Below, piece by piece: positions 2,266-41,913 of a DNA stretch of 64,000 bases (its first letter is position 1; every line of letters begins with the position of its first letter). Both the position numbers and the translations under genes were made by a program. This DNA comes from a virus (lineage: Duplodnaviria > Caudoviricetes): positions 3,162 through 67,161 of the IMG/VR virus record IMGVR_UViG_3300037467_000821; one strand, written 5' to 3'. The notes below the pieces were generated by a model, which saw only the letters and a program-made list of their open reading frames with translations, searched no databases and was not told the DNA's origin.

Positions 2266-3030
2266 ATGAAGCACCCCATTTCGGTGGCTGAGCTGTTGGA
2301 GCTCCACCACCTCGGCGAGCTGTACGTCAAGTGGGCCACGAACCCGGTCGCCATGTCCGAGGAGGACGTGGAGGAGCTGCAGGAGATCTCGGATCGGTAC
2401 TCGATCAACGGGACCTCCGCGCTCTTCTCCTTCCAGAAGAAGTGGCAGCAGGAATTCGGGCTCACCGCCGCGAACACGTTCTCCATCCACGAGGTCGCCA
2501 AGGAGGTTCTGGCGGTCGCGGAGGCGCAGAAGGAGATCCGGTACGAGGAGAAGCTCATCACGAACTCCGTCGAGGACACCGGCGTTCTCGAGCTGCCCGA
2601 GTTCGGCGGCGAAGCGCCGAAGGAGTTCCGGCAGGCCCACGAGACCATGCAGGAGGTTCTCCGCGAGGAGGAGAGGCTCATGCAGGAAGAGGACGACCTC
2701 TACGAAGAGTACGAGAAGCCGACCGGCGCGGAGATGGACGAGGCGCTCCGCGAGCAGCTGCACGAGGACAATGAGGTCGACCGCGAGGCCGAGGCGCAGT
2801 ACCGCGCGGACCAGCTCCGGGACGCCCTGCTGGAGAACCAGCTCGAGACCGAGCGCGAGATCGAGATCCTCAAGCAGATCTCCAACGTCGACGAGCTGAC
2901 GCCTACGGAAAACGCCCGGCTCGACGAGCTCGTCACCAAGAAGGTGTCGGCGATGAACTCCGGCACCCACAGGATCCCGACCGGCGTGCTGGCCCAGGCC
3001 GTCGGCGGTAGTGAGAAGGGAAGCAAGTGA
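2266..3030 (+). CDS. highly acidic hypothetical protein (254 aa)
   Basis: GAGGAG SD 7 nt before ATG 2266; Glu/Asp-rich helical sequence. Confidence 0.8.
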   Translation: MKHPISVAELLELHHLGELYVKWATNPVAMSEEDVEELQEISDRYSINGTSALFSFQKKWQQEFGLTAANTFSIHEVAKEVLAVAEAQKEIRYEEKLITNSVEDTGVLELPEFGGEAPKEFRQAHETMQEVLREEERLMQEEDDLYEEYEKPTGAEMDEALREQLHEDNEVDREAEAQYRADQLRDALLENQLETEREIEILKQISNVDELTPTENARLDELVTKKVSAMNSGTHRIPTGVLAQAVGGSEKGSK

Positions 3031-3311
3031 ACAAGAGGATCATCGTGGCCCTGGCAGCCGTCCTCGGGTTCGTGCTGCTGAGCGCGGAGGGCTGCGCGCA
3101 GAAGCGGATCGGCATCGTCAACGACGTTGTCGGCCCGCCGCTCTCGAACACTCTCGGCTGCAACGCCAACAAGGGCGGCAACTGGAGCATCAGCGTCGAC
3201 CCCGACGGCCACGAGGGTGAGTCCATCGACGAGCGGGCGAAGTACCGGCAGCACTTCTGCGTGACCGAGCCCCAGGCCAAGAAGTACAAGTCGGGGAGCG
3301 TGTACCCGTGA
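3027..3311 (+). CDS. lipoprotein (94 aa)
   Basis: Signal peptide ending AEGC; two further Cys. Confidence 0.7.
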   Translation: MNKRIIVALAAVLGFVLLSAEGCAQKRIGIVNDVVGPPLSNTLGCNANKGGNWSISVDPDGHEGESIDERAKYRQHFCVTEPQAKKYKSGSVYP

Positions 3312-3445
3312 AGAAGGGCATCATCGCCACCTGCGCTATCGTGGGCCTCTTCGTGGCTATGGAGTTCATCGCTCCGGGCCACTGGAGCTTCTTCACGACG
3401 TACGTCGCGAGCACTTGGGGCGCGATCGTGAGGCGCTGGAGCTAG
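3308..3445 (+). CDS. small membrane protein (45 aa)
   Basis: Hand-translated, GTGA overlap, hydrophobic N-terminal half. Confidence 0.55.
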   Translation: MKKGIIATCAIVGLFVAMEFIAPGHWSFFTTYVASTWGAIVRRWS

Positions 3446-3517
3446 CAAGGGAGTCCCGGCGTGCGCTCGCAGATCGGCGCCGGGACGCGAGTAAATTAAT
3501 TCGCAGGAGGTGATCAT

Positions 3518-3535
3518 ATGGCCCTGTCGGCCTAA
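3518..3535 (+). CDS. 5-codon minigene MALSA with a perfect Shine-Dalgarno
   Basis: AGGAGGTGATC (3505-3515) then ATG GCC CTG TCG GCC TAA. Confidence 0.4.
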   Translation: MALSA

Positions 3536-3624
3536 ACGGGCTACGCCCGATGCCGAAGGTCAAGTTTGGGTCTAGCTCGCCAGGGTTAACGACATCCCCC
3601 GAGCCGCCCTGGCGAGCGGCCAAA

Positions 3625-3696
3625 GCCCCTATGGTGTAATGGATGCACACCGGTGTCTTCGATCCGGAGGAGAGGGTTCGAATCCCTACAGGGGCA
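3625..3696 (+). tRNA. atypical tRNA / tRNA-like element, most resembling tRNA-Arg(TCG), enlarged anticodon arm
   Basis: Acceptor GCCCCT/AGGGGC, D stem GTGT/GCAC, T arm GAGGG-TTCGAAT-CCCTA; anticodon arm CCGG-TGT-CTTCGAT-CCGG; no encoded CCA. Confidence 0.6.
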
Positions 3697-3730
3697 CGCA
3701 AGGTCAAGGAACTCCGCCCAGGCGGAGTGA

Positions 3731-3809
3731 GGAGCCATAGTGTAAAGGCAGCACGCCGGGTGCATTGAGCGCCTTAACGGTAGAGCGGGTTCGAATCCCG
3801 TTGGCTCCG
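3731..3809 (+). tRNA. atypical tRNA-like element (Asp/Glu-type body) with a 25-nt aberrant anticodon arm
   Basis: Perfect acceptor GGAGCCA/TGGCTCC, G73, D stem GTGT/GCAC, T arm GCGGG-TTCGAAT-CCCGT; anticodon unassignable (TTG possible); no CCA. Confidence 0.65.
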
Positions 3810-3893
3810 CAAGCAGCCCGGGTGACAAGTGATGATCCTTCGGGACGTGAAGACCTTGCACCCGGGCTGCCCCCATAGAGGAGGAGAGCAGCA

Positions 3894-4277
3894 ATGACCA
3901 TCATCCAGCAGGTCCGCGACGTCCTGGAGGCCAACGCGGGTACGGCCATGACGACGGCCGAGATCGCGGCGAACCTCGACGGGATCACCACCGCGCAGGT
4001 CAGCACCGCGCTGTGGCGGCTCCGTACCGAGGAGGACCTCATCAAGCAGGTCCGCACCGGCGTGCACAAGTACCTCGGTGCGAGCGAGCGCATGCCGAAG
4101 CTGGCCGCGACGATCGAGAAGACCAAGGACGTCTTCGCGGGCTCCGTCTCGGACGCCATCGCGGAGGACGAGACGGCCGACCACAAGTTCTACACCCAGG
4201 TCGGACGCGCCGCGAACGGCGATCCGATCCTCACCAACGACGCGACCGGTCAGGTCTACAGGGCGACCCCGGTTTAG
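3894..4277 (+). CDS. winged helix-turn-helix DNA-binding protein
   Basis: MTTAEIAANLDGITTAQVSTALWRL HTH pattern; strong SD. Confidence 0.75.
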   Translation: MTIIQQVRDVLEANAGTAMTTAEIAANLDGITTAQVSTALWRLRTEEDLIKQVRTGVHKYLGASERMPKLAATIEKTKDVFAGSVSDAIAEDETADHKFYTQVGRAANGDPILTNDATGQVYRATPV

Positions 4278-11298: not shown

Positions 11299-11353
11299 CA
11301 AGACTTCACCTAGGATCCGGGAGTCCTCGCAGACAAACCGGTCGGGTGACCAC

Positions 11354-11480
11354 CAGCCGAGTCCTCCACCCCCTGGGGCTCGGCTGCTGTGGTGGAGGCG
11401 AGAATGCGTACCGGCTTCGGAACAGGGCGGATAACCGGTACCGGGGAAGGTTCTCGTCTCCTCCAGAGCAGAGGAGGTGA
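11354..11480 (+). promoter_or_regulatory. structured 5' leader with SD-sequestering hairpin
   Basis: Stems 11354-61/11379-86, 11399-404/11451-56, 11408-14/11435-41, 11458-63/11471-76. Confidence 0.5.
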
Positions 11481-11481
11481 T

Positions 11482-11847
11482 ATGGGAAACAAGGCCGAGC
11501 AGCGAGCTCGCCGAAGGCGCATCCGAGAATGGATTGAGGATGAGTCTTACGAGCTAGGCGGATACTGGTACGCGTCCAGCGTGCCGAAAGAGCGGCACGG
11601 ACAACCAGGTACTTACAACAACTGGTTCTGCCGCTGCCGACCTTGCACAGACGCTTCCACATCCGCGAAGAAGAAGGAGCGGAAGCAGCGCTGGGAGGAG
11701 CGCATATGGAGCACGGCTCTGGATCCGAAGGGCTATTGGTACGCCCCGAATGCTCCGGAGCACGGGCTGTACTCAACCCTGAGGAATTGGGGCTGCCATT
11801 GCCCGCCGTGTCGTGCGGCGGAGAAGATTGAACAGGAGTCGCGATGA
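11482..11847 (+). CDS. protein with two HG-x6-W-x-C-x-C-x2-C zinc-binding repeats
   Basis: HGQPGTYNNWFCRCRPC and HGLYSTLRNWGCHCPPC; GAGGAGGTGA SD. Confidence 0.75.
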   Translation: MGNKAEQRARRRRIREWIEDESYELGGYWYASSVPKERHGQPGTYNNWFCRCRPCTDASTSAKKKERKQRWEERIWSTALDPKGYWYAPNAPEHGLYSTLRNWGCHCPPCRAAEKIEQESR

Positions 11848-20406: not shown

Positions 20407-20447
20407 GGAGCCGGGTACTGCCACCCCGACAACCCGGCTCCGGGGTG
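20407..20447 (+). promoter_or_regulatory. 10-bp hairpin with C-rich loop (terminator or regulatory switch)
   Basis: GGAGCCGGGT/ACCCGGCTCC; loop CACCCC complementary to adjacent GGGGTG. Confidence 0.5.
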
Positions 20448-20463
20448 AACGAGAGGAGAGCAG

Positions 20464-20916
20464 ATGGATTTCCTTCCGAACGAAGTGGAAATGAGGTCCG
20501 GGGGTTATCTCGGCGAGAAACGCATCAACATCGACATCTTTCTGAGCGAAGCGCCCGGACCCCGGAATGAGCGAGCCTGCCGAGTGCCTATCACCTCCGA
20601 TGCGCTCGATTACGCTTTCGAGCGCGAGGGCATCGACGGCGTTCGAAGCGTCCTGGAGATGGCGATGCGCCAGATCACCGACATCGCCATCAACGAGCTC
20701 CTGAAGGAATACCAGAAGGAGGCGCAGCGCCGGATCGAGCAGGAACGAAAGGCGAGAATGGGACCGCTGGGGTTCCTGGGAGACATCGCCGTGGCCCTGC
20801 ACGAGAAGCGAACTGGAAGGAGCCAGCGCGATGCCGATCGAAGGCATGAATGCGAAGACAGGTGCTGTGAAGCCTGCAACAACGGAACCTGCGATCACCC
20901 CGAGTGCCACAGTTGA
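20464..20916 (+). CDS. hypothetical protein with Cys-rich C-terminus
   Basis: GGAGAG SD. Confidence 0.7.
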   Translation: MDFLPNEVEMRSGGYLGEKRINIDIFLSEAPGPRNERACRVPITSDALDYAFEREGIDGVRSVLEMAMRQITDIAINELLKEYQKEAQRRIEQERKARMGPLGFLGDIAVALHEKRTGRSQRDADRRHECEDRCCEACNNGTCDHPECHS

Positions 20917-36489: not shown

Positions 36490-36739
36490 ACCCCGTGCCA
36501 ATGGGGCCTTCGAGCCCTTTGGTTGCGGGCAAAACTCCAGTGGTTCAGGTATTGAACGAGACCATCCATCCATTCGCTTGGAAGATGCGTGCGACGGCCG
36601 GTCGCGAAGCTCGGGCAGTGCGAAGGGCCTGTTCCACTGGATCAACAACCCGGCGTCGGGCCGGGGTGCACGAAGCGAACTCCCACTCGTGGCGACTGCT
36701 CTCCCTGCGAGTGGGAGTTCCTTCCACTTAGGAGAGCAG
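36490..36739 (+). ncRNA. structured intergenic RNA / leader with RBS-pairing pseudoknot
   Basis: Stems 36536-50/36627-41 and 36677-89/36708-20; loop CTGCTCTCC pairs with GGAGAGCAG RBS (36731-39). Confidence 0.55.
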
Positions 36740-37108
36740 ATGACTGAGTCAGGTATCGTGGAAGTTGATTCGGAGGAGTGGGCCCGACTCAACGAGCTTC
36801 TCCGAACCAAGTCCGAAGAGCTTGAGGAGTGTCTGCATCGTCTGGCAGACCAGAACAATCTGCAGATGTCCCTGAGCGACATGACGCAGGAGCGCGACCG
36901 CCTTAAGGCTCTGCTGCTCAGCGTTGTGCCGAACCTGGAGGCGTTTAACATCGACTATCCGGCGGCCGCCATCGCTCGTACGGCCTTCCAGGGCGGGTCG
37001 CCCGAAGAGGTCGCAGAGAAGATGGCGCTCTGGGACGCCTCTCGTGCGCAGAGGATTTCTGAGTGGAACTCGCTCGTCAACAACGTGCGCACGCAGGCGA
37101 CTGTCTAG
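36740..37108 (+). CDS. hypothetical coiled-coil protein (122 aa)
   Basis: GGAGAG SD; directly upstream of terminase. Confidence 0.7.
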   Translation: MTESGIVEVDSEEWARLNELLRTKSEELEECLHRLADQNNLQMSLSDMTQERDRLKALLLSVVPNLEAFNIDYPAAAIARTAFQGGSPEEVAEKMALWDASRAQRISEWNSLVNNVRTQATV

Positions 37109-40573: not shown

Positions 40574-41140
40574 ATGCGCAGGGGCCGCTTCAATCCCAAG
40601 CAGAAGCGAGACAGCCATGGTCGCTGGACGAGTGGCGGAGGCTCTTCCTTCAAGTCTGGTGGAAAGCTGAAGGCTGTTTCGCGCGCCAGGAAGCCCAAGG
40701 CCCCGAAGACCCAGGACGTGCGCGACCACCAGCGCAAGCTGATCGGGAACGCCATCGGCGCAGGGTTCGCGGCCAGCAAGGGCGACTCGGTTCTGGCCGG
40801 TATCCACGCTGTGGGTGTCGGAACGGCAGCGTACCGACTCGGCTCGAGCAAGGTTTCCGGTTACGTGAACCAGAAGGGCCGATTCAACGCCAAGAAGCGC
40901 GCCACCTTCAACCGCCGCAAGGCCAAGGTAGATGCGGTCGTCGGCCGCGTCGAGAAGGCGCAGAACATCGCGCTCGCAGGACACACGCTTTTCGGTCTGG
41001 CGGCTACTGCAGCCGGAGTCCACAACGCAGGACGAGCAGCCGCAGGCCAGAAGCTTGCGAACGGCCCCCGGCAGCTCGGCCGTACCGCACTGAAGGCCGC
41101 CAAGCAGCGCCGAGGCGTCCACAAGATCACGACCCTGTAG
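40574..41140 (+). CDS. basic protein with FNPKQKRDSHGRW motif (188 aa)
   Basis: GGAGG SD; K/R-rich with Gly/Ala hydrophobic stretches. Confidence 0.75.
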   Translation: MRRGRFNPKQKRDSHGRWTSGGGSSFKSGGKLKAVSRARKPKAPKTQDVRDHQRKLIGNAIGAGFAASKGDSVLAGIHAVGVGTAAYRLGSSKVSGYVNQKGRFNAKKRATFNRRKAKVDAVVGRVEKAQNIALAGHTLFGLAATAAGVHNAGRAAAGQKLANGPRQLGRTALKAAKQRRGVHKITTL

Positions 41141-41149
41141 AGGTGGCCC

Positions 41150-41641
41150 ATGGCGTTCAACCCTCGCCAGCCGCGTGATAGGCACGGCCGCTGGCGTAGC
41201 AAGGGTGGCGCTGTTGGTAGCGCCCTGAAGGAGATCGGCGGAGACCCAGCGCCCAAGAAGGGGATCACCCTTCCTGGCACCGGCCGGGTCACTGTTCGCG
41301 CAGGCCTGAGCTCGGCGACGATCATGTACGGTCGCACTGTTCCACTCATTCCGGGCAAGATCAATGTCCACGTGGGCGTTCTTGGCCGGATCGAGAAGGC
41401 AGGCAGCGGTCCGAACTTCATCGAGAAGCGCGTCGACAACGTCATCGAGCGGATCGCGCAGAGACTGCCCGACAAGGCAGGCGACGTGCTGCGCGGCAAG
41501 AAGACCGACATCGGTGGAGTCACTGTAGGCGCTGGTAAGCGTCGCCGAGTGAATCCCCAGATTCGCGTCAGCAACAAGAAGAAGGCTGCTGGCCGCAAGG
41601 TCCGTACCGACTCGGCTCGAGCAAGGTTTCCGGTTACGTGA
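41150..41641 (+). CDS. basic protein with FNPRQPRDRHGRW motif, copy 1 (chimeric C-terminus)
   Basis: Identical to 41923..42414 except last 11 aa, created by the duplication junction. Confidence 0.65.
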   Translation: MAFNPRQPRDRHGRWRSKGGAVGSALKEIGGDPAPKKGITLPGTGRVTVRAGLSSATIMYGRTVPLIPGKINVHVGVLGRIEKAGSGPNFIEKRVDNVIERIAQRLPDKAGDVLRGKKTDIGGVTVGAGKRRRVNPQIRVSNKKKAAGRKVRTDSARARFPVT

Positions 41642-41913
41642 ACCAGAAGGGCCGATTCAACGCCAAGAAGCGCGCCACCTTCAACCGCCGCAAGGCCAAG
41701 GTAGATGCGGTCGTCGGCCGCGTCGAGAAGGCGCAGAACATCGCGCTCGCAGGACACACGCTTTTCGGTCTGGCGGCTACTGCAGCCGGAGTCCACAACG
41801 CAGGACGAGCAGCCGCAGGCCAGAAGCTTGCGAACGGCCCCCGGCAGCTCGGCCGTACCGCACTGAAGGCCGCCAAGCAGCGCCGAGGCGTCCACAAGAT
41901 CACGACCCTGTAG
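41638..41913 (+). pseudogene. 5'-truncated duplicate of 40574..41140
   Basis: Matches C-terminal 91 aa of that protein; produced by the duplication. Confidence 0.7.

Follow-up and report, generated by a model that had tools for sequence, protein, structure and literature searches.

Within a 64,000-nucleotide (nt) stretch of DNA from a tailed phage (Duplodnaviria; Caudoviricetes), hereafter called the window, positions 3446–3893 form a gap that holds two transfer RNA (tRNA) modules and a series of hairpins. The window comprises bases 3162–67161 of the 67,161-base-pair (bp) IMG/VR virus record IMGVR_UViG_3300037467_000821, which has a GC content of 61.6%; the gap lies about 6.6 kb from the left end of the record, and positions given below count from the first base of the window unless the record is named. 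We found that this island consists of two phage tRNAs, flanked by hairpins and accompanied by a minigene, which is a known kind of arrangement and not a new large non-coding RNA (ncRNA). On balance, we favour the interpretation that it belongs to an early polycistronic transcript, read rightward and punctuated by tRNAs, of a probably lytic actinobacterial phage. This interpretation is supported by the intact acceptor and elbow (D and T arms) of both tRNA modules, the deviations being confined to the anticodon arms; the acceptor, D and T domains are the parts that are recognised by RNase P, RNase Z and the CCA-adding enzyme. In addition, three hairpins (H4, the spacer hairpin and H5, listed below) each lie only 2–3 nt off a tRNA end. 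As a rough background, a hairpin abuts the 5' end in about 11% of 197 phage tRNAs at unrelated loci, several of these merely being the preceding tRNA.

Elements of the gap and their folding

A first-pass annotation had described the region as a stem-rich non-coding gap, and this observation was confirmed. The candidate open reading frames (ORFs) within 3446–3893 show a GC content at third codon positions (GC3) of 0.53–0.66 compared to 0.7–0.96 in real genes, in agreement with the absence of any credible ORF. None of these ORFs gave a match in Pfam or PHROG, and none was present as a called protein in a collection of 15 billion proteins or in the source annotation. The following elements were located in the gap (SD, Shine-Dalgarno; anti-SD, the sequence complementary to it):

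3453–3486, + strand: hairpin H1, a 9-bp perfect GC-rich stem with further inner pairs; pair probabilities 0.99–1.0
3487–3504, + strand: hairpin H2, 6 bp including a G-U pair, with an AT-rich loop
3505–3535, + strand: anti-SD complement and minigene, an 11-nt perfect match AGGAGGTGATC (3505–3515) followed by an ORF at 3518–3535
3519–3563, + strand: hairpin H3, imperfect and three-tiered; the minigene forms its 5' strand
3569–3621, + strand: hairpin H4, about 16 bp including an 11–12-bp perfect stem (3575–85/3607–17)
3625–3697, + strand: tRNA module 1, called by ARAGORN and by Rfam (36.2 bits)
3711–3728, + strand: spacer hairpin, 7 bp with the loop CCAG; −13 kcal/mol, z-score −2.2
3731–3810, + strand: tRNA module 2, called by ARAGORN as Gln-UUG and by Rfam (45.5 bits)
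3813–3870, + strand: hairpin H5, a 12-bp perfect stem, 4 bp of CAAG/CUUG, the internal loop UGAUGA/CGUGAAGAC and a 3-bp stem with a UUCG cap

Most of the stems described in the first pass were recovered where they had been placed. The three long perfect stems (9 bp at 3453–61/3478–86, 11 bp at 3575–85/3607–17 and 12 bp at 3813–24/3859–70) reach pairing probabilities of about 1.0 in a partition function calculated over the whole island, the hairpin at 3487–3504 forms its 6 bp with a probability of at least 0.95, and the last hairpin does carry its cUUCGg cap and its UGAUGA/CGUGAAGAC internal loop. Two descriptions needed correction. The hairpin between the tRNA modules exists, with 7 bp and a 4-nt loop (3711–17/3722–28) instead of the 8 bp reported. 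The two segments of a proposed multibranch closing helix (3529–37/3564–72) are in place, but the helix itself is absent from the minimum free energy (MFE) structure and the ensemble (p = 0.01), although forcing it, as in an alternative fold of H3, costs only 1.8 kcal/mol, and we keep it as a candidate.

Perfect stems of at least 9 bp occur 32 times in the window, and three of them fall inside the gap, which represents 0.7% of the sequence and for which 0.22 would be expected. Relative to dinucleotide shuffles, the leader folds with a z-score of −2.9, the last hairpin with −4.1 and the island as a whole with −3.6. As a background, 150-nt windows over the first 24.6 kb (n = 327) showed a mean of −0.97 ± 1.25, with coding windows of the same genome reaching −4.7. 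The window with the first hairpin (3376–3525) had the lowest value of all 327 (−4.8) and that with the last hairpin reached −2.8; within the island, only these two exceed the background, whereas the four intervening windows (−0.8 to −1.7) are ordinary for this genome. The thermodynamic excess is weaker than the list of stems implies. Strand asymmetry was uninformative, as the minus strand folds nearly as stably, and the island is predicted to fold into a series of self-contained local hairpins that no long-range helix closes. Neither a promoter nor a terminator consensus was detected inside the gap, which, together with the + strand shared by the genes of the window, speaks for co-transcription.

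Upstream of the tRNAs, H1 begins 7 nt past the stop codon of a 45-amino-acid (aa) ORF and has no U-tract behind it. Intrinsic terminators, defined as a GC-rich hairpin followed by a U-tract, were not called at H1, H4 or H5, whose tails read GCGAGUAA, AAAGCCCC and CCCCCAUA, respectively. H2 contains TAAATT (3492–3497), the sole TANNNT (−10-like) hexamer of the island outside the tRNAs; neither a −35 match nor a sigma-70-type promoter was called for it, and a promoter at this place would be a guess. The 11-mer AGGAGGTGATC occurs once in the genome, the anti-SD match of called genes being at most 7 nt, and precedes a minigene of five codons, ATG GCC CTG TCG GCC TAA (MALSA). A 10-nt anti-SD match (AGGAGGTGAT) stands directly before the start of a real gene at 11482 (121 aa). 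The gap in front of that gene (11299–11481, about 183 nt) is also hairpin-rich and closed by the same 10-nt match. A search of IMG/VR with a strong-SD pentapeptide pattern returned four true minigenes, none of them close to a tRNA.

The tRNA modules and the question of a larger RNA

The first pass had noted two tRNA-like modules within an RNA of no described family. Both modules were called by ARAGORN and exceed the threshold of the Rfam tRNA family (RF00005; gathering score 29), with 36.2 bits for 3625–3696 and 45.5 bits for 3731–3809 and with model positions 1–71 covered, so that the family statement holds for the non-tRNA parts and fails for the modules. Neither module encodes CCA, and both retain U8, A14, G18-G19 and the canonical UUCGAAU T-loop.

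In module 1, whose 5' end follows H4 after 3 nt (AAA), both the D arm and the T arm are preserved; positions 7-66 and 49-65 are mismatched. Its anticodon arm measures 18 nt instead of 17 and folds in one of two ways: as a 4-bp CCGG/CCGG stem and a 10-nt loop with an Arg-type CUUCGAU, or, in the Lys-CUU reading of ARAGORN, as a forced stem with a C-C mismatch and C37. The GenBank phage sequence that matches it best is the tRNA-Arg(UCG) of Streptomyces phage Gilson, relative to which it carries a 1-nt insertion in the alignment. Module 2, which starts 2 nt after the end of the spacer hairpin, combines G73 and a fully paired 7-bp acceptor with D and T arms of canonical form. Its anticodon arm measures 25 nt compared to the usual 17 (8 extra) and is built from 4 bp, a UUAA bulge and a further 4–5 bp, with the loop CAUUGAG carrying A instead of the near-universal U33. 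The MFE structure is a clean cloverleaf with this extended bulged arm (9 bp; z-score −2.8). A search with its D-arm and T-arm pattern found canonical tRNA-Gln, His and Met genes and no relatives, and served to place the insertion: in its D and T arms, module 2 does not differ from canonical tRNA-Gln genes, and the 8 extra bases align in and beside the anticodon arm.

A functional decoder is expected to have a 5-bp anticodon stem, a 7-nt loop, U33 and a purine at position 37, and neither module 1 nor module 2 has such an anticodon arm. With regard to codon usage, AAG is the dominant Lys codon (50 per 1000), whereas CGA (7.6) and CAA (3.2) are rarer; under either reading, tRNA 1 could conceivably serve in decoding. 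What is unusual here is the architecture of both tRNAs together with the tight abutment of the hairpins. For mycobacteriophage tRNAs, altered anticodon loops have been proposed as a means of escaping the anticodon nucleases of the host (van den Berg et al. 2023, PMC10264068), and by analogy the altered arms described here could confer resistance to such nucleases. Those tRNAs also belong to actinobacterial phages and concentrate their deviations in the anticodon arm; however, they carry point substitutions in a normal 7-nt loop, whereas here the arm itself has a different architecture (+1 nt and +8 nt), and such arms may not permit decoding.

The suggestion of one long ncRNA of the GOLLD or ROOL kind was not borne out, since neither family matches, the fold is local and H5 belongs to a class of leader elements found at tRNA-free loci (see below). 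The locus shares with GOLLD (RF01998) and ROOL (RF03087) its phage origin, the adjacency to tRNAs and the non-coding character. Members of these families are recognised by a covariance-model match and are multi-domain RNAs of 500–800 nt, whereas 3300–4000 gave no covariance match to either and no multi-domain long-range fold. Of the 448 nt of the island, the two tRNA genes take up 153 nt, and the remaining non-tRNA RNA (about 295 nt) is split into three separate pieces of 179, 33 and 83 nt. Beyond tRNA, covariance-model searches of 3300–4000 against the 4227 families of Rfam 15 returned none, either at the gathering score or at E ≤ 10, and this includes known leaders and riboswitches. A transfer-messenger RNA (tmRNA) of one or two pieces was also rejected: ARAGORN (-m) called none, the 3-70 pairs are C-G and A-U rather than the G3-U70 of a tRNA-Ala-like domain, and MALSA has its own SD and ATG, which a tag ORF lacks. 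The same applies to a bacterial Y RNA (YrlA) acting with Ro60, for which we found no Rfam match in the island and no TROVE domain in the phage. The other form of the first-pass suggestion, a precursor cut at the tRNA modules, is plausible, and would require nothing beyond the usual action of RNase P and RNase Z on tRNAs that lie within a longer transcript.

A proposed tRNA-punctuated transcript and its alternatives

In the favoured model, host RNase P would cut at 3625 and 3731, and RNase Z, or an endonuclease followed by exonuclease trimming, would cut after 3696/3697 and 3809/3810; either 3' route is proposed because CCA is not encoded. Excision of both modules would sever the transcript, and the hairpins adjoining the cut sites (H4, the spacer hairpin and H5) would cap the new ends. 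Hairpins at the 3' ends would shield the upstream pieces against 3'-exonucleases, while H5 would become a 5'-terminal stem-loop guarding the downstream mRNA from 5'-end-dependent decay (RNase E/J) and leaving the ribosome-binding site (RBS) free 12 nt further on. H5 begins 3 nt past tRNA module 2, and only 23 nt lie between its end and the ATG at 3894, which leaves the gene starting there no room for a promoter of its own after H5. Further upstream, H1 would cap, or partly terminate, the upstream coding RNA, and the dense structure would offer no long unstructured untranslated stretch for Rho loading. The 11-nt SD and the five-codon ORF would most likely keep a ribosome close to where the untranslated stretch begins, and so stabilise the 5' end or counteract polarity; alternatively, they could be the fossil of a deleted gene start.

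Such protective roles have precedents. Strong SDs and 5'-terminal base pairing are established 5' stabilisers, and in the Bacillus literature a strong SD or occlusion of the 5' end stabilises the downstream RNA (PMC3997798, PMC5737220). As in the stabilisers of Bacillus subtilis hbs, ermC and cryIIIA and of Escherichia coli ompA (PMC3997798, PMC5737220), a very long SD heads an untranslated stretch, and once the tRNA is excised, the downstream mRNA would have a stable stem-loop 3 nt from its new 5' end. STAB-SD elements, strong SDs near the transcript 5' end, stabilise downstream RNA independently of productive translation; the 11-nt match described here would be a candidate for such an element.

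With respect to overall organisation, the tRNA clusters of phage T4 and mycobacteriophages, embedded in early transcripts, offer the closest parallels: tRNAs in an early non-coding gap on the strand of the flanking genes, with structured RNA beside them and release expected from host RNase P and 3' processing. The T4 tRNA region also yields two small stable RNAs of unknown function. The present locus differs in having only two tRNAs, both with non-canonical anticodon arms, as well as abutting hairpins and a strong-SD minigene upstream.

H5 has siblings elsewhere in this phage. A layout consisting of a perfect 10–13-bp hairpin, 19–23 nt, the RBS GGAGAGCAG and an ATG was found in three instances:

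3813–3896, + strand: H5, before the gene for a 127-aa winged helix-turn-helix protein
20407–20441, ATG at 20464: hairpin in a 78-nt intercistronic gap, before a 150-aa gene upstream of dnaE
36677–36720, ATG at 36740: hairpin before the first gene of the terminase operon

No tRNAs are present at the second and third loci. Since H5 has siblings at tRNA-free loci, we regard it as an mRNA-leader element and not as part of a tRNA-specific RNA, and the hairpin-GGAGAGCAG-ATG layout looks like a phage-wide leader element that marks the starts of operons or segments. A switch sequestering the RBS was rejected for H5, because the duplex energy between its RBS and the 80 nt upstream ranks only 49th of 74 genes. 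At the sibling before 36740, the corresponding energy is −25.2 kcal/mol, the first of the 74, and the hairpin loop within 36677–36742 contains CTGCTCTCC, the exact complement of the downstream RBS, which supports a putative translational switch at that site. A motif, ACAACCCGGC...CCGGGGTG[A/C]ACGA, is common to the pre-RBS gaps 20428–20452 and 36644–36672 (local alignment score 27 compared to 16.5 ± 2.7 for shuffles) and could be a protein-binding or promoter element. The 5' strand of H5 (CCCGGGTGACAAG) resembles this motif.

Several points weigh against the transcript model. The elements, their order, their spacing and their predicted stability are direct observations, whereas co-transcription, every cleavage and the protective roles are what we infer from them. 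Given their irregular anticodon arms, the modules may not be decoding tRNAs at all. The abutting hairpins were spotted post hoc, and the automatic test behind the comparison with the 197 phage tRNAs, which covered 45 nt upstream, clipped H4 for tRNA 1. Hairpins are enriched across the intergenic DNA of this phage, and some of them may serve other ends. Finally, neither protein-guided nor DNA-pattern searches recovered a homologous locus for covariation. By blastn, 3300–4000 had no match among 50,697 GenBank phages. Searches for related loci with three single proteins and with a 9-protein alignment, across viral, metagenome and genome contigs, returned a single locus, 27% identical and preceded by just 71 nt, which was of no use here. 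When IMG/VR and GTDB genomes were scanned, the H5 loop pattern matched only by chance, and the paired T-arm pattern matched only unrelated tRNA clusters.

The remodelled arms also lend themselves to a second explanation, in which the modules would be tRNA mimics kept as RNase P/Z cutting handles and the flanking hairpin RNAs (a leader of about 120–180 nt, the 33-nt spacer hairpin and H5 with its k-turn-like loop) would be functional regulatory or protein-binding RNAs. We consider this unlikely, although it accounts for the fact that both modules keep the acceptor, T and D parts while their anticodon arms are remodelled differently, in module 2 by extra Watson-Crick pairs and not by decay, and for the stable hairpin directly beside each module. 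By inspection, the internal loop of H5 also fits a kink-turn (k-turn) pattern with a UCC/GGA C stem, a CGU bulge and tandem G-A/A-G pairs (G3849-A3835, A3850-G3834); RNAfold gives a competing Watson-Crick pairing, and we regard the loop as compatible with a k-turn. Such motifs are usually either bound by an L7Ae-family protein or fixed by tertiary contacts. However, the siblings of H5 at two tRNA-free loci show that this hairpin is not specific to tRNAs, genes for an L7Ae-family or a Ro60/TROVE protein are absent from the phage, and the z-scores in the middle of the island are ordinary. The odd anticodon arms also fit nuclease-evading or decaying tRNAs. By analogy, such a system would be a phage counterpart of the tRNA-linked stem-loop RNAs (TMERs) of murine gammaherpesvirus 68 (MHV68) or of mascRNA-type processing at MALAT1, in which a tRNA-shaped module is likewise attached directly to a stable hairpin and might provide a handle for processing. 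These systems are eukaryotic or viral and depend on RNA polymerase III and tRNase Z, so that the likeness is an analogy only, and the mascRNA model scored 18.7 bits on the island compared to a gathering score of 42.5.

The same arms might instead reflect erosion. If there were no selection on RNA beyond generic needs, the modules would be tRNA pseudogenes in decay, the minigene would be what is left of a deleted gene, and the GC-rich hairpins would be incidental. The low tRNA scores (36 and 45 bits), the two mismatches of module 1 and the z-scores reached by coding windows are in line with such a history, as is the intergenic position, elsewhere in this 62% GC genome, of 12 of the 32 long perfect stems. 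We nevertheless hold it to be improbable, since random decay does not leave an acceptor, D arm and T arm as free of faults as those of module 2, nor extra bases that pair into a stable helix as its 8 do; the excess of long perfect stems within the 448 nt and their regular spacing to the tRNA ends speak against it as well. Least convincing, and in our view very improbable, is a cis-regulatory leader (3487–3624), in which translation of MALSA would toggle two near-isoenergetic folds and thereby exert attenuator-like control of read-through or processing into the tRNAs and the genes downstream: the genome-wide uniqueness of the 11-nt SD, the overlap of the minigene with H3, the low cost of the alternative closing helix and the z-score of the leader would fit, but neither fold has a U-tract terminator behind it, no Rfam leader or riboswitch matches, the MALSA codons are common ones, the four IMG/VR minigenes of the same layout are not near tRNAs, and the similar 10-nt SD at 11482 serves an ordinary gene.

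The phage, its gene neighbourhood and the possible meaning of the arrangement

Essentially all genes of the window lie on the + strand. Compared with Gordonia, Rhodococcus and Mycobacterium phages, the helicase shows at most 46% identity to Gordonia and Rhodococcus phages and the DUF2786 protein at most 30% identity to mycobacteriophage proteins, and from these low identities the source is assigned to an orphan actinobacterial phage. No tyrosine or serine recombinase was found among the phage proteins; without an integrase, the phage is probably lytic, and an attP or integration role of the tRNA sequences was ruled out for the same reason. The phage also encodes no CCA-adding enzyme and no peptidyl-tRNA hydrolase. 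The genes next to the gap are:

3027–3311, + strand: small gene whose product is signal-peptide- or lipoprotein-like, as judged by eye
3308–3445, + strand: 45-aa ORF directly upstream of the gap, with its stop codon at 3443–3445
3894–4277, + strand: gene for the 127-aa winged-helix-like protein downstream of the gap, with the RBS GGAGAGCAG and ATG at 3883–3896

Both upstream genes are putatively small membrane-protein genes. The 127-aa protein has an invariant N-terminal winged-helix-like half (MTIIQ.VRD...ALWRLR) and a variable linker. Its eight relatives, with 40–79% identity, all come from metagenome assemblies (1–66 kb contigs of Logan and JGI); GenBank phages (tblastn) and IMG/VR contain no relative. 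Genome-wide, no sigma-70/SigA-type promoter scored above 9/12, and the top matches (9/12) fall within genes, which suggests that the phage promoters are of an unrecognised type or of very weak consensus.

Two further observations concern the record itself. Its right end (66990–67161 of the record) duplicates its left end (1 to about 170; TATGGGGGTAAGTAGTTACATACGCAG...), whereas IMG/VR labels it as linear with no end repeats; we take the genome to be probably complete and to have either a terminal repeat or a circular permutation. Moreover, a 300-nt direct repeat with 100% identity (40830–41129 and 41603–41902, 773 nt apart) lies between the portal and head genes and represents either a recent duplication or an assembly artefact.

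If the transcript model is true, the island is mostly ordinary phage gene-expression plumbing, with tRNAs inside an operon and the severed mRNA halves kept stable. The altered anticodon arms could mean nuclease-proof or frameshifting decoders, or non-decoding processing handles. In the last case, phage tRNA mimics with intact elbow and acceptor and deliberately remodelled anticodon arms would act as punctuation, drawing host RNase P and RNase Z to an early transcript and thereby releasing hairpin-capped functional small RNAs, one of them with a k-turn-like loop. We regard this as distinctly improbable; if true, it would constitute a prokaryotic-virus analogue of the tRNA-linked small RNAs of gammaherpesviruses.

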